A DNA stretch of 57,960 nucleotides from Gemmatimonadales bacterium (GCA_035637435.1 DASPXD010000166.1:1-57960); one strand, 5' to 3'. Positions 4,221 through 57,960 are shown, numbered from the stretch's first letter. Made by a program: numbers and translations. The notes: generated by a model not told the origin, from the sequence alone.

Positions 4221-4978
4221 GCACCACGCTCCCAGACGTCTATGGCGCTCGCTTTCGGCTCTCTCCCATTGCGTCCCGATTCATCGAGATGATGACGGAT
4301 GAAGCGCGCGATCAGGCGGCGATGGGCGGCGGCATGGGCCGTGTCCAGAGTGGGAAGCTCCGCCTGCTCGTCGTTCAGGGTCACCAGATCGCGATAGGCT
4401 TGCGGCGGCAGCTTCGTGGGCGGCTGGAGGCCGGCGCACTTGGCGCACAGGACTCCCCCCTCGGCGACGCTGAATGCAACGGTGCCGGACACCGCGTTGC
4501 CGTCGCGGACGCAGGCGTCGAGCTGCGGGGCGAAACCCAGCACGCCGACCAGCAGCCACAGCCACCGGACCGCGACCGCGTCGGCCTGTCGGGGCTCGGC
4601 GTTCACGAGGGCGTCGAGCCCGAGTATGAAGGCTTCGTAGGCGGCCGGCAGCGGTGCCGGCGGCGCCATCTTGAGCATCACCTCCGACAGGGCGGCGGCG
4701 CCCGCAAAGCGTCCCAGGTCGCCCGCCAGATCGCGGCGCAGCTGCACGACGTCGAAGGCCGCCAGCGTCTGCAGCTCCCGCGTCTCTTTGTGATACATCT
4801 GGGCGACGCCCTCGCTCAGCGTCTCGAGCGCCGCACCGAACGGGCTGCGCGGACGGAGCACGCCCTTGGCGATCGCGCTCTGCACGCCGTAGTCGCGCGT
4901 TGCCAGCCGCACGATCTTGGAGGTTTCGCTGTAGCGATAAGTGCGCAGGACGATGGCAGGCGTCGAAACGAGACTCAC
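4199..4978 (-). CDS. recO: DNA repair protein RecO
   Basis: VSLVSTPAIVLRTYRYSETSKIVRLATRDYGVQSAIAKGV... shows the OB-fold N-terminus. A Cys-rich zinc motif follows (LDACVRDG...VLCAKCAG). The start is trimmed to the GTG at 4978, which forms a GTGA overlap with the upstream stop. The longer ORF-track N-terminus is Arg-rich and overlaps the upstream gene. Confidence 0.85.
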   Translation of the reverse strand: MSLVSTPAIVLRTYRYSETSKIVRLATRDYGVQSAIAKGVLRPRSPFGAALETLSEGVAQMYHKETRELQTLAAFDVVQLRRDLAGDLGRFAGAAALSEVMLKMAPPAPLPAAYEAFILGLDALVNAEPRQADAVAVRWLWLLVGVLGFAPQLDACVRDGNAVSGTVAFSVAEGGVLCAKCAGLQPPTKLPPQAYRDLVTLNDEQAELPTLDTAHAAAHRRLIARFIRHHLDESGRNGREPKASAIDVWERGAWTPAAS

Positions 4979-35323: not shown

Positions 35324-36079
35324 CTAGCGGCGTTGCTGCGCGAACAACCAGCGGACGAATTCGTCGGACCCGTACGCCGCGTCCCACGAGTTGTGGTTCA
35401 GGCCGAGCAGCTCCGTGTAGCGGACATCGACCCCTGCCGCTTTCAACGCGGTCGCGGGCTCACGTGAGCCATTCACATTGACGACTTGGTCGACCTCGCC
35501 ATGGAAGATCCAAATTGAAACCTTCGCGAGGCGCTGCGCCAAACTCGACATGACCGCGGCGCTATCACCCGGGACGACGGGAACCGAGCCGCGGAACTGC
35601 GGGAAGTCCCGCACCCAGCCGCAGATCGGCACGATCGCCGCGAATAACTCGGGATGCCGGTAGGCGATGTACCACGTCCCGTGTCCGCCCATCGAGAGGC
35701 CGGTGAGATAGACGCGATTCAGATCGACGTGGAATTCGCGCAGCGTCTGCTGCAGCGCGGCGACAGCCATGTCGGCCGGAGTCCCGACCCACTGCGAATC
35801 GGGCGGCGCCTGCGGGAAGACCACGATCGCGGGATAGCGCGCCGGATTCTGCCGAATCGCGGGGCCGAGGCCGACGTTGGTCTGCAAGAGACCGTCGTTG
35901 CCCCGCTCCCCTGCTCCATGCAGGAAGAGAATTGCGGGCCAGCTTGGCTTCGTTTGATAGTCGGCCGGCACGTAGACCTGATAGTGATACGCGCGGCCGG
36001 CGACTGTGACGTTGCGGTCGAGAAACCCCGTTTGTACCTGTTGGAGCGAAGCGGCAATCCCGAGCAGCAGGAAGAGCAT
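35324..36079 (-). CDS. Alpha/beta-hydrolase esterase/peptidase (phospholipase-carboxylesterase / PHB-depolymerase-like)
   Basis: WPAILFLHGAGERGNDG...VYLTGLSMGGHGTW (GxSxG nucleophile elbow)...IFHGEVDQVV...LNHNSWD. The N-terminus is short and hydrophobic. Confidence 0.78.
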   Translation of the reverse strand: MLFLLLGIAASLQQVQTGFLDRNVTVAGRAYHYQVYVPADYQTKPSWPAILFLHGAGERGNDGLLQTNVGLGPAIRQNPARYPAIVVFPQAPPDSQWVGTPADMAVAALQQTLREFHVDLNRVYLTGLSMGGHGTWYIAYRHPELFAAIVPICGWVRDFPQFRGSVPVVPGDSAAVMSSLAQRLAKVSIWIFHGEVDQVVNVNGSREPATALKAAGVDVRYTELLGLNHNSWDAAYGSDEFVRWLFAQQRR

Positions 36080-49100: not shown

Positions 49101-49871
49101 ATGCAAGGCGATTCAGCGCTTGGACGTGCTCTGGGACTCGTGCGCGAACTGCGGCAACGTTGCCCGTGGGACCGCGCGCAGAGCCCGCAAACGCTCCGTC
49201 CCTATCTGGTCGAAGAAGCGCTCGAGCTCGATCACGCGATCCAAACCGACGATCCCGAGGCGATGCGCGACGAGCTGGGCGACCTGCTGCTGCATCTCGC
49301 GTTTCAGATCGTCATCGGCGAAGAGCGCTCGCAGTTCAACGCCGAAGTCGTCACGCGGACGCTGGAAGAAAAGATGTGGCGCCGGCATCCGAATCTCTTC
49401 GGCGACGGGCGCATCAGCACGAGTGATCATGCGGGGTGGGAGCTCGTCAAGCGGCGTGAGCCACGCAGCGGCGGGAAGCGCGGTACACTGGTGGGACTGC
49501 CCCCGACGCTTCCGCCCCTGGTCATGGCCTATCGGCTGCAGGAGCGAGCCGCCGGCATCGGATTCGATTGGCCGGATGCGAACGGTCCGATGGCGAAGGT
49601 GAAAGAGGAAGTCGCTGAGCTCGAAAAGGAACAAGGAACGGGGCGGCGGGAGCAGGTTGAGGAAGAGCTGGGCGATCTGCTATTTGCGGCTGTGAACCTT
49701 GCCCGCAAACTTGGCATCGAAGCCGGTCAGGCGCTCGAGCGTGCCAATCTCAAGTTCATGCAGCGATTCGAGAAGCTGGAGAAGCTCGCCGAAGAACGCG
49801 GATTGGAAATGGGACGGGCCAGTCTCGAGGAGCTGGATGGATTGTGGAACGAGGTCAAGAAGGCGCGCTAA
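49101..49871 (+). CDS. mazG: Nucleoside triphosphate pyrophosphohydrolase MazG
   Basis: LVRELRQRCPWDRAQSPQTLRPYLVEEALELDHAI...ELGDLLLHLAF, with a second MazG repeat ...EEELGDLLFAAVNLAR. It is the only convincing plus-strand gene. Confidence 0.9.
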   Translation: MQGDSALGRALGLVRELRQRCPWDRAQSPQTLRPYLVEEALELDHAIQTDDPEAMRDELGDLLLHLAFQIVIGEERSQFNAEVVTRTLEEKMWRRHPNLFGDGRISTSDHAGWELVKRREPRSGGKRGTLVGLPPTLPPLVMAYRLQERAAGIGFDWPDANGPMAKVKEEVAELEKEQGTGRREQVEEELGDLLFAAVNLARKLGIEAGQALERANLKFMQRFEKLEKLAEERGLEMGRASLEELDGLWNEVKKAR

Positions 49872-50335
49872 TTCGCTTTCAGCACGGCCTCGATGAAGCT
49901 CAGAGTCTTGGTTTCGACCCAGGATGCGGACACGGCGGTAATGCCGATCGTGCCGAGACGGTCTCCCGTGGCGGTGGGCGGCCGGCCTTTCCAGGGGGCG
50001 TGCTTGACCTCGCGCTGTACGACGATGCCGTGGCGGGGGTCGTAGCGAAAGATGAGGGCGGAGGCGAGCCCGGCTCGCGGCGTGAAGGAGAGGGCCACGC
50101 TGGGGTACGCGTCGTCTCGCTCGATGTGCTCCCGCACCGACGCATCATGCCCGGCGTCCTTGAGCTCGGCCATGATCGCGTCGAGGACGGGACGTACGAG
50201 CGAATGCAGCCGCTCCCCGCACATCCGCCGATCCGCCTGATCCTGCGGCGTTTTGTCCGCCGGCTCCACCCTTGCCGCTCGCTCGGCGTAGGCCCGCAGC
50301 AGCGCCTGCAGCCTGGCCTTGTATTCCTCAGTCAC
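49868..50335 (-). CDS. Hypothetical protein
   Basis: The ORF has a coding-like composition but no family was recognised. The start is trimmed to GTG 50335, preceded by AAGGAAGGGG. Its stop overlaps the mazG stop (convergent). Confidence 0.5.
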   Translation of the reverse strand: MTEEYKARLQALLRAYAERAARVEPADKTPQDQADRRMCGERLHSLVRPVLDAIMAELKDAGHDASVREHIERDDAYPSVALSFTPRAGLASALIFRYDPRHGIVVQREVKHAPWKGRPPTATGDRLGTIGITAVSASWVETKTLSFIEAVLKAN

Positions 50336-50433
50336 GGTCCCGTTTCCCCTTCCTTTTCGTAGCCGCCACCGCGATCGCTCTCTCAGTTGATCAACGATAA
50401 ATATGCGGAAGCTCGAACTGAAAGGCATACAGA

Positions 50434-50958
50434 TCAGCGACCGTCCGTCCGAACCGCGGCATAGACATACTGGTCACGAACCTGCCCGGCCTTGATTGCG
50501 CTCGAGCGCAGCACTCCTTCCTGCACGTACCCGGCCTTCTCGAGAACTCGGACCGAAGCGGCGTTATCGGTAAACGGCAATGCAAAGACGCGCAGCAGAT
50601 CGAGAGAGGAAAAGGCGTAGTGCGTTGCGGCGCGCACCGCAGCCGTCATGATGCCCCGGCCCCAGTACGTACGCCCGAGCCAGTACCCAATCTCGGCCCC
50701 GCAACGCTCGATGTCCTCTCCCCGGCGCAGGCCGATCCCACCGACGGGCTCATCCGCGACCACAATCGCGAAGTTGGTAGGCGGCGTCTGAGCAGCCACG
50801 GAGCGGATGTACGCAGCAGCGTCAGCCGCACGATAGGGGTGAGGAAAGCGATCCCGCAGGTTGAGCCAGACATCGCGGTCGTTGGCGTGTCGCGTGATGA
50901 GCGCCGCATCCGACGCGCGCCACGGGCGCAACAGGCAGACTCCGCACTGGAGCTCCAT
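50434..50958 (-). CDS. GNAT-family N-acetyltransferase (RimJ/RimL-like)
   Basis: LRPWRASDAAALITRHAND...FAIVVADEPVGGIGL...IGYWLGRTYWGRGIMTAAV...ALPFTDNAASVRVLEKAGY. Confidence 0.82.
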   Translation of the reverse strand: MELQCGVCLLRPWRASDAALITRHANDRDVWLNLRDRFPHPYRAADAAAYIRSVAAQTPPTNFAIVVADEPVGGIGLRRGEDIERCGAEIGYWLGRTYWGRGIMTAAVRAATHYAFSSLDLLRVFALPFTDNAASVRVLEKAGYVQEGVLRSSAIKAGQVRDQYVYAAVRTDGR

Positions 50959-50967
50959 GGCGTCAGA

Positions 50968-51996
50968 TCAGTGTCGCAACTGCGCGAGGGCGTCGGCGAT
51001 GGCGACCAGCTTGTGATCGTTGACGGCCTCCACCACCCTGTACCAGTCGTGATCGACCGTCGTCGGGTACATGGCGCCGAGGATCGCGCCGGCAATCGAG
51101 GCTACGGAATCACTGTCTCCACCAATGTTCGCGGCCAGGAGAATCGCTTCTTGCGCCGACTGCATGAGCGTACCAAGTCCCAGAGCCAACGGCACGATCG
51201 TCAATGGCTGGTTCGGAAAGCAAAGCGCGGCTATCTCCGCGGCTCGAAGTGCGGGCAGGCGCCGCAGATTCTGATGCACGGTGCGGACCGCGTCCCCGAA
51301 CGCGGCGGCGGTAGGACCGCGCCACCGACGCTCGGCAGCGGCCGCAGCACGCTCGGCAAACTCCAGAACCTCGTGTGGAGAAGCCTCATCAATCGCAGCC
51401 GAGACGGCAGCGGCCGTGGCAGCCGCGGCCGCGACGGCGAGCGACCCGCCATGCGTCGAAACCGACGCTTCACGAGCGCCGTTCAGCAGGTCCTCCGCGC
51501 GGCGCGACGTATAGAAGATGCCCACCGGCGCCACACGAATTGCGGCGCCGCAGCCGTCATGGTTCGTTGCAATCCGCGCGGGATCGGCGGCCTGGTGAAA
51601 TTCCCAGAGGGATTTGAGACCCGGATGCACACACTTCGTACAGCGGAGCAGCTCACGACCGACGCTCACGTGCGATACGCTGCGATCGGTCACGATGGCA
51701 CGCGCGACGGCAATGGTGCGTTCGGTGTCGTCCGTCGTTTCACCGATCCGCCATTCGTGCTTCGCGTTCCCCGCGTACCGGGGGATGACCGACCCGGGAG
51801 TGCCTTCGAAACCGCGGAGGCCGTGGGGATACCAGTGCAGCACATCCTCATGCGACAGCATCTCGGTTTGCTTGCCGATGGCGTCGCCGGTAGCGATGCC
51901 CGCGAGGCAGCCGAGGATACGATCAGCTAGAGTCACCCTCCCCGGGATGTTCGTCCTAGTTGTGGACGTCAAAGTGAAACACAACTCGCTTGACAT
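50968..51996 (-). CDS. ADP-ribosylglycohydrolase family protein
   Basis: DRILGCLAGIATGDAIGKQTE...ETTDDTERT...NIGGDSDSVASIAGAILGAMY matches the ARH/DraG family motifs. The start is uncertain (ATG 51996 or GTG 51936). Confidence 0.8.
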   Translation of the reverse strand: MSSELCFTLTSTTRTNIPGRVTLADRILGCLAGIATGDAIGKQTEMLSHEDVLHWYPHGLRGFEGTPGSVIPRYAGNAKHEWRIGETTDDTERTIAVARAIVTDRSVSHVSVGRELLRCTKCVHPGLKSLWEFHQAADPARIATNHDGCGAAIRVAPVGIFYTSRRAEDLLNGAREASVSTHGGSLAVAAAAATAAAVSAAIDEASPHEVLEFAERAAAAAERRWRGPTAAAFGDAVRTVHQNLRRLPALRAAEIAALCFPNQPLTIVPLALGLGTLMQSAQEAILLAANIGGDSDSVASIAGAILGAMYPTTVDHDWYRVVEAVNDHKLVAIADALAQLRH

Positions 51997-52330
51997 TCCT
52001 TGGCGGACTCGAACCGTCAGAGCCGGTCATGATTTCAATCTCCGCGTAATCCAACCCGACGAATCCGGCGGTCGGTTGGTAAACGAACGTCGCGACCCAG
52101 TTGGTCTCCGCATTGCGGCGGATCTCACTAATGGTGTAATGCTTCGGCTGGATTGAAATCCTTGCGCTCTCTTCATCCCCGCCCACGATTGGATATTGGT
52201 ACGCTTGCGCGTTCGTCAACGAGACGCTGACGGTGTCGACCGAGCCTGGCTCCTTACAGCCTTGAATCTGGAAGACGACAGGTAGCAGACCGACGAGTGC
52301 GACTCGGATAAGGAAACGTATGCCTTTCAT
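51956..52330 (-). CDS. Small lipoprotein, function unknown
   Basis: MKGIRFLIRVALVGLLPVVFQIQGC is a lipobox. The start is trimmed to ATG 52330. Confidence 0.55.
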   Translation of the reverse strand: MKGIRFLIRVALVGLLPVVFQIQGCKEPGSVDTVSVSLTNAQAYQYPIVGGDEESARISIQPKHYTISEIRRNAETNWVATFVYQPTAGFVGLDYAEIEIMTGSDGSSPPRNVKRVVFHFDVHN

Positions 52331-52370
52331 GTGACGCCCGTTCGCTAAGAAAAAGTAGTCATTTACGGCA

Positions 52371-52736
52371 TCAGGAAGGTGGTCGGTTCGCGTGCCCGGA
52401 TTTACGAAATTGCCCGCCAACGAGGGCGCCCGCAGTGAAGCCCACAGCCCCTATCAAAGCGCCGCCCGCTATCGTGGCACCAATGGGATTAGGGGACTCC
52501 GACATGCCCTCAAACCACATCGCGCCCGCTATTCCTAGGCCGATCCCACCAATCACGCCACCCTCGAGCCAGTATGTGCGGGGGATCGCTGCGGCGGTCA
52601 AAAGGCTGTTGACGGGCACGGCAACGGACGGTGGCGGAAATGCAGCGGCTGCGTACGCCGGCACGGGCGCGAGTCTCTGGCTGGCCAGTGAGGACGGAAG
52701 CAGCAACGCTGCAGAAGCCAGAAGTATTCTGTACAT
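52371..52736 (-). CDS. Secreted glycine-zipper protein, function unknown
   Basis: Signal MYRILLASAALLLPSSLASQ, then GGVIGGIGLGIAGAMW and GGALIGAVGFTAGALVGG. An AGGAGG RBS lies upstream. Confidence 0.6.
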   Translation of the reverse strand: MYRILLASAALLLPSSLASQRLAPVPAYAAAAFPPPSVAVPVNSLLTAAAIPRTYWLEGGVIGGIGLGIAGAMWFEGMSESPNPIGATIAGGALIGAVGFTAGALVGGQFRKSGHANRPPS

Positions 52737-52744
52737 GTTCGCCT

Positions 52745-52771
52745 CCTAACGTTTGCGCCTAGACAGCGCGC
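52745..52771 (-). repeat. attC-like 3' half-site downstream of the DUF2007 ORF
   Basis: Gene sense: GCGCGCTGTCTAGGCGCAAACGTTAGGA. This is homologous to the 3' arm at 53078-53105 (GCCGCAGCCTAGGCGCACCTCGTTAGAC). No convincing RYYYAAC partner was found. Confidence 0.3.
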
Positions 52772-53071
52772 TCAACCAATTAACAAGTTGCCACAAAGCA
52801 CCAGAAGCAACGCTACCAGCGCCAAGAGTACGAGGTTCCAGATCCGTCGAGCTGAAGGCTGAACGACCGACGCCGCGGCCGTGGGCACGAGATCGCGTAC
52901 GATCTCTCGAGCCCGCGCAAAGTCTGCGCTAGAAACGAGAACTCTAACGGGAACGAACGGGAGTGCGGCGCCGGACTCGTCATTGAGGACGATATCGATG
53001 CCCTCGGCGGCCAACGCAAGCCGAACACTTTCGATCAGCACGCGATCTGTACTCTGCAGAACGACATTCAT
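52772..53071 (-). CDS. DUF2007-like (putative signal-transducing) domain protein with C-terminal TM
   Basis: MNVVLQSTDRVLIESVRLALAAEGIDIVLNDES...VLVSSADFARAREIV, then the TM IWNLVLLALVALLLVLCGNLLIG. Confidence 0.65.
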   Translation of the reverse strand: MNVVLQSTDRVLIESVRLALAAEGIDIVLNDESGAALPFVPVRVLVSSADFARAREIVRDLVPTAAASVVQPSARRIWNLVLLALVALLLVLCGNLLIG

Positions 53072-53077
53072 CGCGCT

Positions 53078-53277
53078 GTCTAACGAGGTGCGCCTAGGCT
53101 GCGGCGCCTAACGTCAGAGAGTTCCAGGAGCGACTCGCGGTCACGCATCAAGTCGCCGGGCCCAATCAAGGTGACTCCCTCGGCAACGAGCCACTCATAG
53201 ATCCGACGCCGGGCCGGGGCATGGTGAACCCGGATGGGTACACCGTGTGACGCGGCCACTCCGCGCGCCCTTAGGCA
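53078..53277 (-). repeat. Composite or over-long attC-like region (R''-like GCCTAAG at 53277-53271; R' GTTAGAC at 53084-53078; internal GTTAGGC at 53112-53106)
   Basis: Gene sense 5' end: GCCTAAG-G-GCGCGC.... 3' end: ...GCCGCAGCCTAGGCGC-ACCTC-GTTAGAC. This has the same box architecture as the better copies, but the boxes are about 200 nt apart. Confidence 0.3.
53080..53259 (-). CDS. Possible 59-aa ORF (below the ORF-track cutoff), function unknown
   Basis: GTG 53259 to TAG 53080: VAASHGVPIRVHHAPARRRIYEWLVAEGVTLIGPGDLMRDRESLLELSDVRRRSLGAPR. The layout loosely resembles a Cys-less glutaredoxin/ArsC-like beta-alpha-beta N-terminus. Its C-terminus reads through repeat sequence and there is no good RBS. 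Confidence 0.25.
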   Translation of the reverse strand: MAASHGVPIRVHHAPARRRIYEWLVAEGVTLIGPGDLMRDRESLLELSDVRRRSLGAPR

Positions 53278-53591
53278 GCGCTCACAGCCGGACCAGGTAT
53301 GATCACCCCGCGAGGCATCGGGTGAATCTCGACTCGGAACCCCGCTCCCGCTTTTACCGTTGGATCATCGGCCGCAAAGGAGCGCACCGCCGCGTCGTCT
53401 GCAAACTGGACGATGCCGATCCCGTAAGCACCCGCAGGATCCCCGACGGGCCCAAATGCGACCACGTTCCCCTTGCTCATCCAATCTCTCCAGTACGCTG
53501 CATGATCGTGCATGAGCCTCGCCTCAGCCTGCGACATATCCTGTGGGAAGGTTGGACGCGGCGGAATGAGCTTGCAGAAGAATGTTTTCAT
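53271..53591 (-). CDS. YciI-family protein
   Basis: MKTFFCKLIPPRPTF...MHDHAAYWRDWMSKGNVVAFGPVGDP...DDPTVKAG follows the YCII/DGPF-like pattern. The stop TAA lies inside a GCCTAAG box. Confidence 0.72.
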   Translation of the reverse strand: MKTFFCKLIPPRPTFPQDMSQAEARLMHDHAAYWRDWMSKGNVVAFGPVGDPAGAYGIGIVQFADDAAVRSFAADDPTVKAGAGFRVEIHPMPRGVIIPGPAVSAA

Positions 53592-53606
53592 GGAGGTGTT
53601 GTTGTG

Positions 53607-53721
53607 TGTTAACTGCGGCGCGAGCTCAAAGTGTTCACAAACGGAAGATTACTACAGAAAGACGGCGCCGTCAGCTTCAAGCGCGTGTCAGGCCCTGAAG
53701 GTGTGGTGCCGCTTGTTAGGC
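53607..53721 (-). repeat. attC-like site (115 nt) downstream of the DinB ORF
   Basis: Gene sense: GCCTAACAAGCGG...GCCTGACACGCGCTTGAAGCTGACGGCGCC...GAGCTCGCGCCGCAGTTAACA. The DinB stop TAA lies inside the GCCTAAC box. The arms pair as TT[G]AA[G]CTG[A]CGGCGC / GCGCCGCAGTTAA, with unpaired bases on the 5' arm. The 3' core box is non-canonical (GTTAACA). Confidence 0.5.
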
Positions 53722-54228
53722 AGACCTCGCTTGGACTTCTTCCGAGGTCATGCCATAGAGCGGGGGCGTGGGGACGTTCAGAAGGCCGAGCATCAGATAG
53801 ATCTGGCCACGGTGGTGGGCTTCGTGCTCGACCATGGCCCGCAACCACTTCCAGGTGGTGATCGGGGTGCCGGCTGGGGTGAGGCATTTCCGTTCAAGGT
53901 CCGCGTCCGTCAGCGTCCCGAAAATCGCCAGCGATTCAAGCCCCAGACGATCTAGGAAAGCCACAACCGCCTCGAAGCCCTCCGCCAGGTGGCGGCCGCA
54001 TCCCGCGTACCGGCTGGGGCGTCCCGCCACGGTCTCTGCGTACATGTAGCGCTCGATGGTAGCGAGATGCCGCACGAGGTCGCCGAAGGTGAACTTGCCA
54101 GGATGCGGGCTCCACTCGATTTGGTCCGGAGGAATACAAGCCACGACGCGGCGCGTACGGGCGCGGATGGTTCGCCAATAGTCGAGGAAAGATCCGATCG
54201 AGCGAATTTCCATTGGTTCAGTGCTCAT
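53716..54228 (-). CDS. DinB-family (DinB_2 / metal-dependent four-helix bundle) protein
   Basis: FGDLVRHLATIERYM...MVEHEAHHRGQIYLMLGLL shows the His triad pattern. Confidence 0.8.
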   Translation of the reverse strand: MSTEPMEIRSIGSFLDYWRTIRARTRRVVACIPPDQIEWSPHPGKFTFGDLVRHLATIERYMYAETVAGRPSRYAGCGRHLAEGFEAVVAFLDRLGLESLAIFGTLTDADLERKCLTPAGTPITTWKWLRAMVEHEAHHRGQIYLMLGLLNVPTPPLYGMTSEEVQARSA

Positions 54229-54311
54229 TGTGAACCATACAGCCGATTAGGCGACCGTCCTGCCGCATCGGTCGGTCCATGATAAGTCCGAGACCCTTTA
54301 CCCGACCATCC

Positions 54312-55559
54312 TCAGTCGGGCGCGTGCCAATAGAACGACTGGCGCGCACGGAACAGCGTCTCACCGCGCGTATTGGTGAGCGTGACCAAGGCGTCCAGAA
54401 CCGGCGCGTCGAGGCGGCTCGTGACCGAGCGTGACGGGAATTGGCCCTCGATCGTGACGACGATGCCGACGCGCTCGAACTCGCAGCGCAGGTGTACCGC
54501 AGCCGGGCTAATCCGTGCATCTGCACACCCCACTTCATCCCGTGTCCCGATCCGCGAGAACGTGACAAAGGGCTGCGGACGCAGCGTCAGGCGGGTGAAG
54601 CGCCGATCGGAGACCGTGAACTTGTAGCTCGGCTCGTAGTACCCCTCGGCTTCCGACTGGAGGGGCCGAGGCGGTGGCGGTGGGGGCTCTGGCGGCGGTG
54701 ACTCGGTCGGTTGGGTGACCACAGTCGCTGGGGCCGGGAGGCGCATAATCACGAACGCCGCGGCGCCCACGAGCGCCAGGAGTCCGGCTCCAACGATGAC
54801 TGTGCGGCGACGTCCACGTATAGTCACCCACACGCGTTGTAACATTTCTCTGAGATGTCGCAGGATCGCCTGAAGGCGTTGCACGACGGCGAGCCTCGGC
54901 GCGACCTCATGCGTCGGAGCCATGTCCGCCGATGGCGCGACAGGGCTTGGGCCTGGTGAAAAGTCGGGCGGCGGAGGTACGACCCGCCGCGGTGGAACCG
55001 GGGGAGGCGGATGCGGAACGACACCGCGAGGAGGAACGACAGCACGGGCCGTGGGGGCAGCCGGGCGTGGAGCGGCCGCTGCGTGAGGCCTGACGAGTCT
55101 GACGTACCCCGGTTTCCGGGTGAGGCGGGACCAGACAGCGAGCAGCAGCGCCGCGCCCAACGCCCCGGCGGCGTCCGGTACGAGATCCCGCAGGCGGCAA
55201 TGTCCCCGCCCCGTCATGGTCATGCCCTCGGCGATCTCGACGAGGGCTCCCACGAGCAGCGTGGCGAGGAGCGCCCAGACGGGGCGCGCGTCAGACCTCC
55301 CGAACTGCACCCACGACATCCAGTAGAAGCCGGCGAACAGCGCGATGTACGCGTAGTTGTGCAGCGAGAGGACGAGCACCTGCATCGTGGGAAGGAGCTG
55401 CTCGCACTTCGGGACATGCACGTGGAAGTGGGTTTGCGCGGGAAAGTAGAGGAGCCCGAGCACCACGAATGCGGCATAGGCCCAGCGCTTGCCGCGCAGG
55501 GCGAGAAGAACGAGGAGAGCGAGGACGCCCGCACCGACGCGAACGGCGAGAGGTGACAT
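54312..55559 (-). CDS. Membrane protein: N-terminal multi-TM region (tentatively VanZ-like), Pro-rich linker, second TM and a C-terminal domain of unknown function
   Basis: LALLVLLAL..., HNYAYIALFAGFYWMSW, LLATLLVGALVEIAEG, RDLVPDAAGALGAALLLAVW. A linker follows (AAPRPAAPTARAVVPPRGVVPHPPPPVPPRRVVPPPP), then the TM VIVGAGLLALVGAAAFVI. The VanZ assignment is a weak pattern match. Confidence 0.6.
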   Translation of the reverse strand: MSPLAVRVGAGVLALLVLLALRGKRWAYAAFVVLGLLYFPAQTHFHVHVPKCEQLLPTMQVLVLSLHNYAYIALFAGFYWMSWVQFGRSDARPVWALLATLLVGALVEIAEGMTMTGRGHCRLRDLVPDAAGALGAALLLAVWSRLTRKPGYVRLVRPHAAAAPRPAAPTARAVVPPRGVVPHPPPPVPPRRVVPPPPDFSPGPSPVAPSADMAPTHEVAPRLAVVQRLQAILRHLREMLQRVWVTIRGRRRTVIVGAGLLALVGAAAFVIMRLPAPATVVTQPTESPPPEPPPPPPRPLQSEAEGYYEPSYKFTVSDRRFTRLTLRPQPFVTFSRIGTRDEVGCADARISPAAVHLRCEFERVGIVVTIEGQFPSRSVTSRLDAPVLDALVTLTNTRGETLFRARQSFYWHAPD

Positions 55560-55571
55560 GTGCCGAGACGC

Positions 55572-55681
55572 TGCCTGACGACGTTGGCCTAAGCTAAGGG
55601 GTCACGCCTCGCCAGCCAACCGTTCGGCAGCTTCAGGTGCGTGTAGGGAGGAATGTCATGCGAAATGAGGCGCGTGTTAGG
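55572..55681 (-). repeat. Degenerate attC-like site forming an apparently ORF-less cassette
   Basis: Gene sense: GCCTAACACGCGCCTCA...CACCTGAAGCTGCCGAACGG...CTTAGCTTAGGCCAACGTC-GTCAGGC. The 5' box is canonical. The 3' box is GTCAGGC (T to C), with an alternative CTTAGGC 14 nt earlier. Confidence 0.4.
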
Positions 55682-55742
55682 CGGCGCGCCCTTCCTTTTA
55701 GACGCTCGAGGGAGCCAAAACGTACACAATGAGAATCGGGCT

Positions 55743-55806
55743 GCCTAACGGATCGCGCGTAAGCTGCGGCGCGCTGAAGAAAAAGGGCGTCAAGCGCTTG
55801 TTAGGC
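55743..55806 (-). repeat. attC-like site (64 nt)
   Basis: Gene sense: GCCTAAC-AA-GCGCTTGACGCCCTTTTTCTTCAGCGCGCCGCAGCTTAC-GCGC-GATCC-GTTAGGC. The terminal boxes are perfectly complementary. The stop TGA of the 55790-56224 ORF lies inside the element. Confidence 0.65.
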
Positions 55807-56224
55807 GCCGGCACAACGCGCTCGTCGATTGCGCGCCAAGACTACCCTTGGAATACGCGCGCCACTTCGTGTCCGTGCCGTCCAGCTGTCCCGTGCTCGA
55901 CGTCGTGCTGTCGCCCGGAAGGAGCAGCGTTTTCCTGGTGTCGAAAGCATTCAGCACACGTTGACGTAGACCTCGACAGTCGACTTCAACTTGTTCCACA
56001 CGGTACTCGGCTCTAAACTCGGGCCCGTGCCGATCAAAATCCCAACGCAACCAGACTACAAAGGAGCCATCCCGGCGTCCGACCGCGGCGGTGTCCAAAT
56101 CGACCGTCTCGCCTTCAGTGGTGAGCAGCCGCACCCAGTGGCGAGATGTGGCGACCTGGCAGGGAGCCATCGATGGAGCAAGGATAGAAGTGAGCAGAAC
56201 AACCAGGCTTACCTCAGTTTTCAT
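55790..56224 (-). CDS. Small secreted protein, function unknown
   Basis: Signal MKTEVSLVVLLTSILAPSMAPCQ. The layout resembles surface-adhesin-E-like small proteins, which is a weak guess. The last residues (RRLTSA) are encoded by the attC-like element. Confidence 0.55.
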   Translation of the reverse strand: MKTEVSLVVLLTSILAPSMAPCQVATSRHWVRLLTTEGETVDLDTAAVGRRDGSFVVWLRWDFDRHGPEFRAEYRVEQVEVDCRGLRQRVLNAFDTRKTLLLPGDSTTSSTGQLDGTDTKWRAYSKGSLGAQSTSALCRRLTSA

Positions 56225-56252
56225 GTGCCACCCGGATGATGTTTACAGCGCG

Positions 56253-56341
56253 GTCCAACGGATCGCGCTTAAGCCGCGGCGCGCTGGTGAACGATTCATT
56301 CCTTAATGTAGCGCGCCAGCAGCTTCAAGCGCTTGTTAGGC
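56253..56341 (-). repeat. attC-like site (89 nt), best-formed copy
   Basis: Gene sense: GCCTAAC-AA-GCGCTT[G]AAGCTGC[T]GGCGCGCT-ACATTAAGGAATGAATCGTTCACC-AGCGCGCCGCGGCTTAAGCGC-GATCC-GTTGGAC. It has a long imperfect stem with two unpaired bases (G and T) on the 5' arm. It starts 9 nt after the stop at 56351 and ends 28 nt before ATG 56224. Confidence 0.7.
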
Positions 56342-56350
56342 CGCCGGCCC

Positions 56351-57082
56351 TCATTGAGTCGGGTAGACCGCTGCAACTCGGCCCAAGGTATCAAGAAACG
56401 TCAGCTGCGAAGTGCCGAGCGTATCTACTGATAATCTGATCCTGACCTTGCCCTTGTCATCTCGTAACTCGAGCGCGACGATGCCGTTCGAACTACCGAG
56501 AAACGCACGCAAGTGCCCTGACGCAGCGACATCCTGTCGAATGTATTCCCGACGCAAGGAGTCACGCGTCGGACCTGGCGGAGTCGCCCCCACTTGCTGC
56601 CCCAAGACCGCGAGCGCCTCAGCATCTGCCGCTGTCCCGGTGGGGCGATCCCAAATCCGCAGTCCCGCTGACCTCCGCGTGCCGTCATCCAGATACTGCA
56701 GCGCCACGACTTGATTCTGTTTCCATTGATCGAAAGAGAGATGGCCGAACGCTGTGCTCGTATCTCGTGGCCCGCCTGAGCTACCTCGATAGATGAGACC
56801 ACCCACCTCGTCGCCCGCCTGGTTGTAGAAAAGCATTCCGGCGCTGCCCGCGCGCCCACGCGTTTTAGGGTATTCCCTACCAGCCACCGTGATTCCGGGA
56901 AGACGCGACCCGTTCGCCAGCACGAGCGCGAGGTGCCCAGCCGAATCCACAATGTTCAGCCGTTCGACGGACAGAACCGTTGGCTGCTGGGGTCTGAAAC
57001 CACTCAGCAGGAGCGTGGCAAGAGCGAAGAACATGACCAGGTTGGTGGCGAAGCTCCATTTGATGATTGTGTGACTGGGCAT
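56351..57082 (-). CDS. N-terminally membrane-anchored protein, function unknown
   Basis: TM FATNLVMFFALATLLLSGF, then internally similar segments (LNIVDSAGHLALVLANGS... / GIVALELRDDKGKVRIRLSVD...). No family was recognised. Confidence 0.55.
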   Translation of the reverse strand: MPSHTIIKWSFATNLVMFFALATLLLSGFRPQQPTVLSVERLNIVDSAGHLALVLANGSRLPGITVAGREYPKTRGRAGSAGMLFYNQAGDEVGGLIYRGSSGGPRDTSTAFGHLSFDQWKQNQVVALQYLDDGTRRSAGLRIWDRPTGTAADAEALAVLGQQVGATPPGPTRDSLRREYIRQDVAASGHLRAFLGSSNGIVALELRDDKGKVRIRLSVDTLGTSQLTFLDTLGRVAAVYPTQ

Positions 57083-57223
57083 TTTGGCCGACCTCCAAGA
57101 ACACGGGAGTGTCTCGCATTCGTCTAAAGGCGATATGTTCGCCGGAACGATGGGTGATATTCGGAGGTTTCAGAGGCTGCCATGTTGTTGCAGACGCGCG
57201 ACACTCTTCACGAAGGACCGGAT

Positions 57224-57745
57224 CTACACAGCGCCCTGCGATGCCTCACGAAGCGCGAAAACGAGCTTCGGAACCGGCAGTTCAGCGTCTAGACGCAGGA
57301 TTCGACTGGACCGCTGAGACAGCCAGCGCTCGTGCAGCGCCCGGCTGCGACCTGTAAAGTCCGGGTCATCGTAACGCTCTGCCCACACTATGAACGCGGG
57401 ATTGACTGAGCCAAAGCGAGCCATGTCGCGGGCACGAAGCCGACCAATGCGCACCGGCGTTGGCGCGGTGAGAAAGACGATCAGATCCCATCCGTCTTCG
57501 ACCTGGCGACCCCATTCAACCAGCGAGCCGGAAACCACGACGTCGGTGCTTTCGCGGATCCCGTCAACCAGCAACGCGAGCCGCTCCGCCTTAGGGCGTT
57601 TTAATTGGAAGGGGGGCGATGTTGGGAGCCAATAGAAATCGTCGAGATCGAGCCATTGGGCGCCCGTGGCCTCAGCAAAGGCTTTGCCAAGCGTGGAAGT
57701 ACCGGTGCCCGATGCGCCGGTGATATGAACACGCAGGACCGTCAA
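57224..57745 (-). CDS. P-loop NTPase, adenylate-kinase/topology-modulation-like, with atypical Walker A
   Basis: TVLRVHITGASGTGTSTLGKAFAE...WLDLDDFYW.... The Walker-A position normally occupied by GK[ST] reads GTST. The start is set at TTG 57745, 16 nt after the attC-like core box. The ORF-track start at 57817 would read through that element. Confidence 0.65.
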   Translation of the reverse strand: MTVLRVHITGASGTGTSTLGKAFAEATGAQWLDLDDFYWLPTSPPFQLKRPKAERLALLVDGIRESTDVVVSGSLVEWGRQVEDGWDLIVFLTAPTPVRIGRLRARDMARFGSVNPAFIVWAERYDDPDFTGRSRALHERWLSQRSSRILRLDAELPVPKLVFALREASQGAV

Positions 57746-57760
57746 ACCTCGCGAGACGCT

Positions 57761-57862
57761 GCCTAACGGCCACCAACTCACCGACCCTTCCCCCAAATGA
57801 GAAGCACGTACCGACAATTCACCAGATTCGATGACATCTGCGTGGGTGGAATCCAGTTAAGC
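57761..57862 (-). repeat. attC-like site (102 nt)
   Basis: Gene sense: GCTTAAC-TGGATT-CCACCC...GGTGG-CC-GTTAGGC. The boxes fit RYYYAAC / GTTRRRY and the inner arms pair CCACC/GGTGG. The spacer asymmetry is opposite to the other copies, so the orientation is uncertain. Confidence 0.45.
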
Positions 57863-57960
57863 CCAACAAGACTGTCGCCGTGCGTGCGGGCGTCGCTGAG
57901 TTTAGCATGACATTCCTGCACGGCCTGCTGTTGGATCTCTCGATAATGGCGCCACTGCAC
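57778..57960 (-). CDS. C-terminal fragment of an unidentified ORF entering from the right edge
   Basis: The open frame ...QWRHYREIQQQAVQECHAKLSDARTHGDSLVGLNWIPP... continues about 28 codons into the attC-like element before its TGA. The leading codon at the window edge is not a verified start. An alternative frame stops at the TAA near 57909. Confidence 0.3.
   Translation of the reverse strand: MQWRHYREIQQQAVQECHAKLSDARTHGDSLVGLNWIPPTQMSSNLVNCRYVLLIWGKGR

Follow-up and report, generated by a model that had tools for sequence, protein, structure and literature searches.

Introduction

Integrons have been recorded in Gemmatimonadota (PMC8618304; PMC9024848), among them a large integron on a replicon of Gemmatirosa kalamazoonensis KBS708 noted in the IntegronFinder 2.0 paper (PMC9024848). 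[quoted passage not shown] The first extrahelical base of described attC sites is "almost exclusively" G, and a G-to-C change at an extrahelical base is tolerated experimentally, with a 1.2- to 2.7-fold effect (PMC2727003).

In this study, we analysed a window of 57,960 nucleotides from a Gemmatimonadales bacterium (GCA_035637435.1, DASPXD010000166.1), the right end of which had been interpreted, in a sequence-only reading, as an integron-type gene-cassette array. Our results indicate, with a probability of about 0.9, that the segment at 52.7-57.96 kb belongs to a sedentary chromosomal integron of a soil Gemmatimonadales bacterium, as the distal, oldest and partly eroded end of its cassette array. 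This is a gene-capture system of known kind, and the accompanying suggestion that an integron in Gemmatimonadota would be poorly documented does not hold, since such integrons are already on record.

Results

The search for attC sites was carried out with a covariance model (R1) built here from 110 related sites, all of them outside the window, which is specific for this family rather than a generic attC model; the elements listed in the sequence-only reading were scored with R1 and folded as DNA. Within the window, R1 gave three significant matches, each at an ORF end on the minus strand, and no significant match in positions 1-52 kb even with filters off. Likewise, eight of the nine GCYTAAC motifs in the 58-kb window lie within 53106-57862 (shuffle mean, 3.9 per whole window). 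The array has a G+C content of 0.60-0.63, compared with 0.64-0.71 elsewhere, and is flanked by 50 kb of housekeeping chromosome. The ORF list and the gene maps of the window and of contig L001, which continues it to the right, agree with the earlier description of the cassette ORFs as short and co-oriented, all being on the minus strand, and the sequence bears out that their stop codons lie in or beside the GCCTAAC box. Gene order within the window is the same in all near-identical contigs. Pfam and domain searches found no recognised resistance genes in the array.

All features of the array are on the minus strand and are described here in gene sense, from the right edge of the window. The first is the 3' part of a small membrane-protein ORF (57778-57960), the last ORF of a cassette starting past the window edge; its frame extends in L001 to about position 4404, after an attC site at L001 4296-4385. 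The element proposed behind this ORF, 57862-57761, gave no R1 match and a fold z of -0.04, and is mostly coding, as its GCTTAAC falls within the ORF ending at 57778. Its likeness to an R' end is limited to CCGTTAGGC (57769-57761), an R' remnant with the cassette junction G|TT at 57767|57766, the remainder of the attC having been lost. This remnant is complementary to the R'' GCCTAAC at 56341-56335, in agreement with the cassette rule. The cassette in between (56259-57766) carries two ORFs and its own terminal attC. One ORF (about 57745-57224) has a Pfam match to the P-loop domain AAA_18 and the other (57082-56351) encodes an unknown protein of 243 aa; neither the sequence nor R1 reveals an attC between them. 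The terminal attC (56253-56341) is intact, with R'' GCCTAAC, R' GTTGGAC and two bulged bases on the 5' arm of the coding strand. It is matched over its full length by R1 (77.7 bits, E 2e-19), and folds as DNA with -22.5 kcal/mol for the bottom strand (z -2.9) and -25.3 kcal/mol for the top strand.

The next cassette ORF (55790-56224) encodes an Adhesin_E-like lipoprotein of 144 aa (Pfam PF16747, 27.1 bits), and its TGA stop falls within the following attC (55743-55806). This site, GCCTAAC...GTTAGGC, is only 64 nt long and internally deleted. Its R boxes and proximal L stem remain, but the distal stem and loop are missing; it folds weakly (z -1.3) and scores 43.2 bits with R1 (E 1e-9). The spacer behind it (55683-55748), which lies between two attC-type elements and contains no ORF of at least 50 aa, may be an empty or eroded cassette. 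It is followed by an interrupted attC 5' arm (55620-55682), consisting of GCCTAACACGCGCCT, a 31-nt insert and then CTGAAGCTGCCGAACGG, with the 3' arm absent. The element proposed here, 55681-55572, scored 11.6 bits with R1 (E 0.67) with a fold z of +0.7, and its attC likeness is confined to this 5' arm (55682-55668 and 55636-55620), its 3' part (55617-55573) being the leader of the gene that follows.

The gene for a 415-aa membrane protein, together with a conserved 45-nt leader (55617-55573), occupies 54312-55617 and represents a former cassette. No attC follows it here; its homologues are flanked by attC sites in contigs L114 (1676-1777 and 1-63) and L088. L118, L114 and L050 share the conserved leader, which accompanies the 415-aa gene in other contigs. 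Although this protein had been called VanZ-like, its Pfam score of 15.7 bits is below the cut-off of 30.1; the other identities proposed, namely the AAA_18 P-loop protein, DinB_2, YCII and DUF2007, were all recovered by Pfam. The DinB-family cassette ORF (53716-54228; DinB_2, 74 bits) has its TAA stop inside GCCTAAC, and a copy in L035, 93% identical, has its attC intact and is followed by a cassette other than that in the window. In the window, the attC behind DinB (53607-53721) is eroded. A stray R'' start (53721-53705) precedes a second R''-L'' arm beginning GCCTGAC (53693-53664), the 5' arm is interrupted, and the L' arm is truncated at 53608, without R'. The fold z is +0.75, and R1 gives only a local match (53679-53609, 29.2 bits, E 8e-6).

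The YciI-like cassette ORF (53271-53591; Pfam YCII, 46.8 bits) is followed by a degenerate long attC of repeat family D1 (53078-53276), which scores only 8.1 bits with R1; its 5' arm (53276-53251) has decayed, and its L'-R' arm, GGCGCCGCAGCCTAGGCGCACCTCGTTAGAC (53108-53078), is good. Behind the DUF2007 cassette ORF (52772-53071; Pfam DUF2007), a homologue of which, 70% identical, lies in the array of L125, there is an L'-R' remnant ending in GTTAGGA (52743-52771). This is the last recognisable attC trace and the visible distal limit of the array. The half-sites previously noticed in this region are thus real one-arm remnants, 53108-53078 (with the degenerate arm 53276-53251) and 52771-52743. 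Beyond this limit, two small co-oriented ORFs of 121 and 124 aa (51956-52736), without attC, gave no Pfam match and no homologue among the compared loci; they could represent fossil cassettes of the array terminus or belong to the flank.

Taken together, two or three of the five attC elements originally listed are recognisable, namely 56341-56253, 55806-55743 and, as the fragment 53679-53609, a part of the third, and 55681-55572 and 57862-57761 are not. Both boxes are present in 56341-56253 and 55806-55743, and the remaining window elements retain a single one. Folding as DNA gave a similarly divided result: 56341-56253 folds, 55806-55743 does so weakly, and the other three have z values of -0.04 to +0.75. 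Because 56341-56253 is the sole attC of the window that still folds like intact sites, most of the segment may be inert. The majority of its cassettes have probably lost their mobility.

L001 is 99.96% identical to window positions 50001-57960 over the 7,960 bases compared, and adds 4,478 bp. This extension contains nine attC sites of 46.6-104.8 bits, each behind a short ORF, eight of them at 74.8-104.8 bits and the remaining one at 46.6; attC scores drop toward the distal end of the array. Two of the extension sites were folded, with z values of -5.1 and -6.4. Among the L001 cassettes is a HicA/HicB-like toxin-antitoxin pair. Window and L001 together hold 11 to 12 attC sites without intI, which formally agrees with the definition of a CALIN as two or more attC sites lacking a nearby intI, but the array runs off the contig end. 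As had been noted from the sequence, the window contains no tyrosine recombinase that tblastn could detect, and intI is also absent from the 4.5-kb extension. A metagenome scan starting at the first L001 cassette did not reach an integrase, and neither the intI nor the attI of this genome was recovered; the repeated attC sites are points at which assemblies break.

The same attC family is found in arrays of over 100 soil Gemmatimonadales MAGs, and two of its sites are on a 1.9-Mb Acidobacteriota contig. Each site consists of R'' GCCTAAC, a short spacer, L'' with two bulges, a variable loop, L', the spacer GATCC and R' G|TTAGGC; among the 110 external sites, the boxes are GCCTAAC in 91 and GTTAGGC in 82. 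The hairpin is supported by covariation across these sites, with 97.2% of cells paired and compensatory changes in 10 of 25 pairs, a result matched by none of 500 shuffles. The same arms carry loops of three length classes (about 90, 102 and 141 nt). The bulges, at alignment columns 17 and 25, are on the coding-strand AAC arm, i.e. opposite AAC in the complement; the stem between them is 6 bp (AAGCTG), and on the bottom strand a G directly follows AAC. The geometry of the family is therefore canonical by the criteria of PMC5027507 and PMC2727003. The identity of the extrahelical bases departs from the usual first G and last T, which are typical but not strictly defining: on the bottom strand, all 110 sites have C as the first base, and the last base varies (C in 52 sites, T in 45, G in 8, A in 5). 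Stable hairpins directly behind stop codons could also be intrinsic terminators or regulatory RNA hairpins conserved at gene ends. We consider this very improbable, since no T-run follows the stem, Rfam gave no match, and the RYYYAAC/GTTRRRY boxes, the asymmetric bulges and the link between the R'' of one cassette and the R' of the preceding one play no part in termination.

Integron integrases lie beside the same attC family in relatives. Ten related contigs have an intI match, comprising five full ORFs, which score 377-445 bits against TIGR02249 (cut-off, 265), and five partial or broken matches, cut by the contig end or split. One of these IntI proteins aligned over its full length, including the IntI-specific segment, to VchIntIA (PDB 2a3v), and a Gemmatimonadales MAG IntI shares 54.9% identity over its full length with annotated IntI1. 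In all ten contigs the attC sites are downstream of intI on the same strand, and in all ten loci intI is co-oriented with the cassettes, its 3' end toward them. All related contigs extending to the proximal end carry intI; in two relatives (L119 and L017), the match beside the array is split over several frames. In four relatives, candidate attI sites, so called for their sequence resemblance (GTCYAA-N5-GTTAGGC), are found 100-250 nt past the intI stop, where an attI between intI and the first cassette would be expected; the window contains no such site.

Cassettes of the family are mostly 400-800 bp long. Of 354 cassettes, which group into 342 clusters, 299 have their longest ORF on the attC top strand. 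At the protein level, the DUF2314 cassette of L001 is 98-100% identical in six metagenome contigs; in these, five different neighbours lie upstream of it and three downstream, and its identity stops at CGTTAG|GC or |AC, i.e. inside GTTAGGC. Neighbours differ in four of five homologous cassette pairs on each side, and the DinB and 415-aa cassettes are found in other arrays with intact attC sites. Furthermore, the R'' of a cassette fits the R' of the preceding one better than its own R' in 64 versus 26 cases in the MAG family and in 58 versus 4 in G. kalamazoonensis, which is the expected outcome of a G|TT crossover. The junction polymorphism proposed as a check was thus found, in that cassettes of the extension and of relatives change neighbours at the GTT junction. 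Judging from contigs of different strains or samples, cassettes in the array extension and in relatives appear to behave as mobile units, and their sharing in varied contexts points to recent recombination in the population.

These data also bear on two other explanations. The elements are imperfect intergenic palindromes, highly repeated in the lineage, and might belong to a generic REP/MITE family that is unrelated to integrons and intergenic by chance. This explanation is effectively refuted. Such a family was expected to be scattered genome-wide, but the other 52 kb of the window contain no copy; the copies form one-strand arrays at roughly 400-800-bp spacing behind co-oriented ORFs and adjoin integron integrases, and whole ORF-plus-repeat units swap neighbours at GTT. 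An unlikely but more serious explanation is that the array is a CALIN or a dead integron, severed from a working integrase, whose cassettes are frozen remnants kept as ordinary chromosomal genes. The lack of intI in the window and the 4.5-kb extension, the erosion of most window attC sites and the split intI matches of L119 and L017, which suggest pseudogenes beside arrays, are what it would predict. However, the extension sites are strong, both in score and, for the two folded, in structure; extension cassettes recur nearly unchanged in differing metagenome contexts, as expected from recent recombination; and no related contig with the proximal end lacks intI.

Discussion

The interpretation of the segment as an integron-type cassette array is supported by the R1 matches, the continuation of the array in L001, the intI genes beside the same attC family in relatives and the changes of cassette neighbours. 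The unit is a cassette made up of TTRRRY from the previous crossover, one or two ORFs and a terminal attC. By analogy with studied integrons, the complement of the coding strand would fold into an imperfect hairpin. The IntI tyrosine recombinase would cut this bottom strand between A and C of 5'-AAC, and cassettes would be excised as circles and re-inserted at attI. In this family, intI precedes the array on the same strand and points toward attI and the cassettes; from this arrangement, the intI of the source genome is predicted to be a minus-strand gene to the right of the window, past at least nine further cassettes. The window sites, far from attI, have been worn by deletions, insertions and arm loss.

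More tentatively, and with somewhat less than even confidence, we speculate that soil Gemmatimonadales are a group with large sedentary integrons of one design, characterised by a co-oriented class-1-like intI, three attC length classes and an invariable first-base C, and that their arrays are perhaps a major host reservoir of the soil cassette pool, one that has so far gone undescribed, perhaps exchanging cassettes with other phyla, given the two sites on the Acidobacteriota contig.

Among known systems, the integron of the cultured G. kalamazoonensis KBS708 (NZ_CP007129.1, the 1.1-Mb replicon "plasmid 1") belongs to the same order. Its IntI and the MAG IntI of contig L024 share 61% identity, and its intI is followed by 81 attC-type sites on the same strand over about 45 kb. 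The attC design is shared, with RYYYAAC, a G bulge, a 6-bp stem, a second bulge and GTTRRRY, and the first coding-strand bulge is G in 80 of the 81 sites. In contrast, the arm sequences differ (GAATC-GTTGCAGCTG in KBS708 against AA-GCGCTTGAAGCTG in the MAG family), which is why R1 gives only 21-41 bits on the KBS708 sites. The spacers are of the classical 5 and 6 nt in KBS708 but of 2 and 5 nt in the window family, and the KBS708 array is on a secondary replicon, whereas that of the window is flanked by housekeeping chromosome.

The Vibrio cholerae superintegron, which has VCR attC sites and is the type of the sedentary chromosomal integron, is likewise large and made up of small ORFs, most of them unknown, with attC sites highly homogeneous within the lineage and with toxin-antitoxin cassettes, like the HicA/HicB-like pair of L001. 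Its recombination is structure-specific and uses the bottom strand, as we infer for the Gemmatimonadales family. However, intI is divergent from the cassettes in Vibrio and co-oriented with them in the Gemmatimonadales family, and the extrahelical bases are G, T and T in VCR (PMC2727003) but first C and second C or T in the Gemmatimonadales family. The "atypical" or reverse integrons of the Treponema denticola type (PMC3607928) are from a different phylum; the Gemmatimonadales IntI shares 55% identity with that of class 1 (IntI1). Class 1 mobile integrons (IntI1, attI1 and attC sites such as that of aadA7) resemble the Gemmatimonadales family in their IntI (54.9% identity), in the core GTTAGGC common to both and in the attI-like inverted box pair ending in GTTAGGC in Gemmatimonadales relatives. 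Unlike class 1 integrons, which are mobile and short and carry resistance genes and a divergent intI, the array of the window is chromosomal and long, carries no recognised resistance genes, and belongs to a family with a co-oriented intI.

Results

From 57960 down to about 52740, the ORF list and Pfam searches of the window give minus-strand genes that are short, co-oriented and unrelated in function. Pfam families among the cassette products are AAA_18, an Adhesin_E-like lipoprotein, DinB_2, YCII and DUF2007, and three products belong to no Pfam family. The 58-kb window has nine copies of the motif GCYTAAC (shuffle mean for the whole window, 3.9), eight of them within 53106-57862, and G+C is 0.60-0.63 in the array versus 0.64-0.71 in the rest of the window. 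An Rfam scan of 50-58 kb gave chance-level matches only and no attC family, and PADLOC found no convincing defence system among the cassette proteins, its sole match being a 26-residue P-loop. The VanZ-like call in the sequence-only reading for the 415-aa protein came down to a match below threshold and was dropped. L118, L114 and L050 all keep a 45-nt leader, GGCTGGCGAGGCGTGACCCCTTAGCTTAGGCCAACGTCGTCAGGC (window 55573-55617), ahead of the 415-aa gene regardless of context; this leader may act as a promoter or as a 5'-UTR element that moves within the cassette.

Look-up of a 243-aa ORF returned four contigs. The ENA contig L001 (16 kb) was compared with the window over 7,960 bases (50001-57960), where identity is 99.96%, and goes 4,478 bp past the window's right edge. 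Within this extension there are nine short single ORFs or pairs of ORFs, and a well conserved repeat, about 90-139 nt long, comes after each of them: GCCTAAC-A(A/T)-GCGCTTGAAGCTGNCGGCGCGC ... GCGCGCCGCAGCTTAAGCGC-GATCC-GTTAGGC. The extension carries the array on, and therefore the window holds only one end of a longer array. One L001 cassette (737-1165) encodes a HicB-like/HicA toxin-antitoxin pair, HicA scoring above the cut-off (41.6 bits) and the HicB-like protein below it (22.9 bits); large chromosomal integrons are typically stabilised by such pairs. L001 1-111, comprising the last 20 nt of a DUF2314 ORF and an attC at the contig start, recurs 600 bp later at 599-706, either as a tandem cassette duplicate or as an assembly artefact at a repeat.

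On the other side, the co-oriented minus-strand run goes on past the last attC trace (49868-52736), with 121-aa and 124-aa ORFs, an ADP-ribosylglycohydrolase, a GNAT acetyltransferase and a 155/186-aa ORF. A homologue of the GNAT protein (36% aa) lies within the array of L058, and these ORFs may be fossil cassettes. At the array boundary, only the adjacent ADP-ribosylglycohydrolase (50968-51996) is common to L055, where a homologue with 80% aa identity likewise adjoins the array. In the stretch compared, L055 1741-3565, the next gene matches window 35336-36025 instead, and L055 therefore lacks, or has rearranged, about 15 kb of the window (36-51 kb); synteny of the boundary with this locus is weak evidence.

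A 3' arm pattern scanned against one genome per species matched at least 119 stretches. Among the matches listed, nearly all were in soil Gemmatimonadales/Gemmatimonadetes MAGs, with exact matches often reaching eight or nine per 6-8 kb. A two-arm search gave 396 full attC sites in three length classes of about 90, 102 and 141 nt, which are discrete and have arms in common, the 141-nt class being set apart by compensatory GC/CG swaps in the three innermost stem pairs. The proposed structure combines an R box of 7 bp with an L stem of 18 bp in which two single bases bulge out. In an alignment of 110 sites (A1, from L005-L123, excluding the window and its near-identical contigs), 97.2% of cells pair and 10 of 25 pairs show compensatory changes, and no shuffled or slid control came near this.

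The family-specific covariance model R1, which differs from the generic IntegronFinder model, was run over the whole window with filters off. Where a covariance-model check had been proposed with the attC model, R1 gave three significant matches, all on the minus strand and at ORF ends: a full-length attC at 56341-56253 (77.7 bits, E 2e-19), an attC with an internal deletion at 55806-55743 (43.2 bits, E 1e-9), and a local match to a fragment lacking the outer box R' (GTTRRRY) at 53679-53609 (29.2 bits, E 8e-6). These three stand from the earlier list of elements; the others gave no significant match, and on 1-52 kb there was nothing better than E 0.2. DNA folding agreed with R1. Two L001 sites folded at about -30 kcal/mol (z -5.1 and -6.4) and the bottom strand of window 56253-56341 at -22.5 kcal/mol (z -2.9); the remaining window elements folded no better than shuffles.

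Close reading indicates that the weak results arise because arms are interrupted or lost. Inserts of about 25-30 nt break the 5' arms at 55682 and 53721, R' is missing from the site after DinB, and the sites after YciI and DUF2007 retain mainly the L'-R' arm. The element first placed at 55681-55572 (R1 11.6 bits, E 0.67) has an attC-like but interrupted 5' arm, and its 3' half is instead the leader travelling with the 415-aa gene. The supposed attC at 57862-57761 was rejected, having no R1 match and a fold no better than shuffles; only CCGTTAGGC survives, at 57769-57761. R1 scores drop along the array from the L001 part toward the far end of the window, a trend consistent with the erosion of attI-distant sites.

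In six metagenome contigs the DUF2314 cassette from the start of L001 recurs at 98-100% protein identity; it has five distinct neighbours upstream and three downstream. Identity starts at ...C GTTAGGC GTCGGCC ATG upstream and stops at ...GATCCGTTAG downstream, followed by GC-AGATG, AC-GGCAC or GC-AGCGC depending on the next cassette. Cassette polymorphism at the GTT junction, as proposed from the sequence, is thus seen, with identity breaking inside GTTAGGC. The window DinB cassette is also found in L035 (93% nucleotide identity), there with an intact 102-nt attC and another downstream cassette. The 415-aa gene lacks an attC in the window; in L114 and L088 it has attC sites on either side. Clustering of the 354 cassettes from all loci gave 342 clusters, and neighbours of homologous pairs differed in 4/5 cases on each side. 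The outer box R'' (RYYYAAC) was closer to R' of the preceding site than to its own R' in 64 cases versus 26, a signature of crossover at G|TT. From these comparisons we infer that cassettes of this array have probably recombined.

Two contigs carry altered sites beside the DUF2314 cassette: an inverted attC upstream of it (L126 63-152, minus strand, 103 bits) and a truncated attC, TAAGCGCGATCCGTTAGGC, immediately before it (L124, about 1995-2020). This suggests inversion or deletion between attC sites. The same attC family occurs in a 1.9-Mb contig assigned to Acidobacteriota (L008 989-1099 and 1716-1851) and in bins of several other phyla (L043, L069, L072 and L103); cassette exchange between phyla, mis-binning or a combination of the two could account for this.

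By tblastn, with an IntI1 query and the outcome checked against annotated intI1 genes, NCBIfam and PDB, no IntI was found in the window, and IntI-like genes were found in ten of the loci compared. Five full ORFs scored 377-445 bits against NCBIfam TIGR02249 'integron integrase' (cut-off 265). One relative's IntI aligns end to end with VchIntIA (PDB 2a3v, E 6e-82), including the IntI-specific segment ...KYPNAGREWGWQWVFP... and RRHH, and is also 54.9% identical to annotated class 1 IntI1. In 10/10 loci the attC sites lie downstream of the intI 3' end on the same strand. GTCYAA-N5-GTTAGGC, between the intI stop and the first cassette in four relatives, is a plausible attI simple site, judged by sequence.

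The overlapping contigs L001-L004 end within attC repeats before reaching intI, and none of the 45 loci returned when metagenomes were scanned with the first L001 cassette had an integrase. This genome's own intI and attI were not recovered, because assemblies break in attC repeats, and the array may therefore be dead or integrase-less in this strain. In two relatives the intI matches are split over several frames. The split matches, L119 6419-7312 (adjoining nine or more attC) and L017 4290-5174 (adjoining three), are candidate pseudogenes or sequencing errors.

The best plasmid-database match of a MAG IntI (61% identity) is the 1.1-Mb replicon of Gemmatirosa kalamazoonensis KBS708, whose record in the plasmid collection (NZ_CP007129.1) has no annotation. 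In the region of about 790.8-856.8 kb (L169 and L170), intI is directly followed, on its own strand, by 81 attC-type sites; these span about 45 kb and have a median spacing of 524 bp. G is the first coding-strand bulge in 80/81 of them, and R'' was closer to the preceding R' in 58 cases versus 4.

Discussion

The window segment represents the eroded distal end of a genuine integron cassette array. The integron-type array proposed by the sequence-only reading is upheld, since its attC family adjoins intI in relatives and its cassettes swap neighbours at GTT. A real chromosomal integron is thereby located in a soil order that is abundant and rarely cultured, one attC family is common to more than 100 MAG species, and part of the highly diverse pool of soil cassettes can be assigned to a host. 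The window itself carries a modest message, being the worn-out far end of a known element type; its main use is in annotation, where the ORFs at the array are accessory cassettes, not core genes. The large integron of G. kalamazoonensis was already noted in the IntegronFinder 2.0 paper (PMC9024848), and Gemmatimonadota appear in a review's list of integron-bearing phyla (PMC8618304); the literature searched held no detailed description of this attC family.

In described attC sites, the extrahelical bases of the bottom strand are found on the arm that faces the 5'-AAC of this strand, the first and last being separated by a 6-bp stem (PMC5027507), and G usually follows this AAC (PMC2727003). Here the bulges are on the AAC arm of the coding strand with AAGCTG between them, and the complement reads GCCTAAC-G-GATC. 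Therefore the bottom strand is the complement of the coding strand, the same as in classical cassettes. On this strand the first bulged base is C in 110/110 sites, and the last is C in 52, T in 45, G in 8 and A in 5. The first extrahelical base of described sites is 'almost exclusively a G', and published mutagenesis found that G-to-C costs only 1.2- to 2.7-fold (PMC2727003); thus, C is a variant and not an obstacle, and this family is a natural test case for integrase reading of extrahelical bases.

In the loci of this attC family that have an intI match, intI is co-oriented with the cassettes and not divergent, an arrangement that corresponds to the 'atypical' orientation known from Treponema (PMC3607928). 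The sites of the G. kalamazoonensis replicon have the same attC design as the Gemmatimonadales MAG family.
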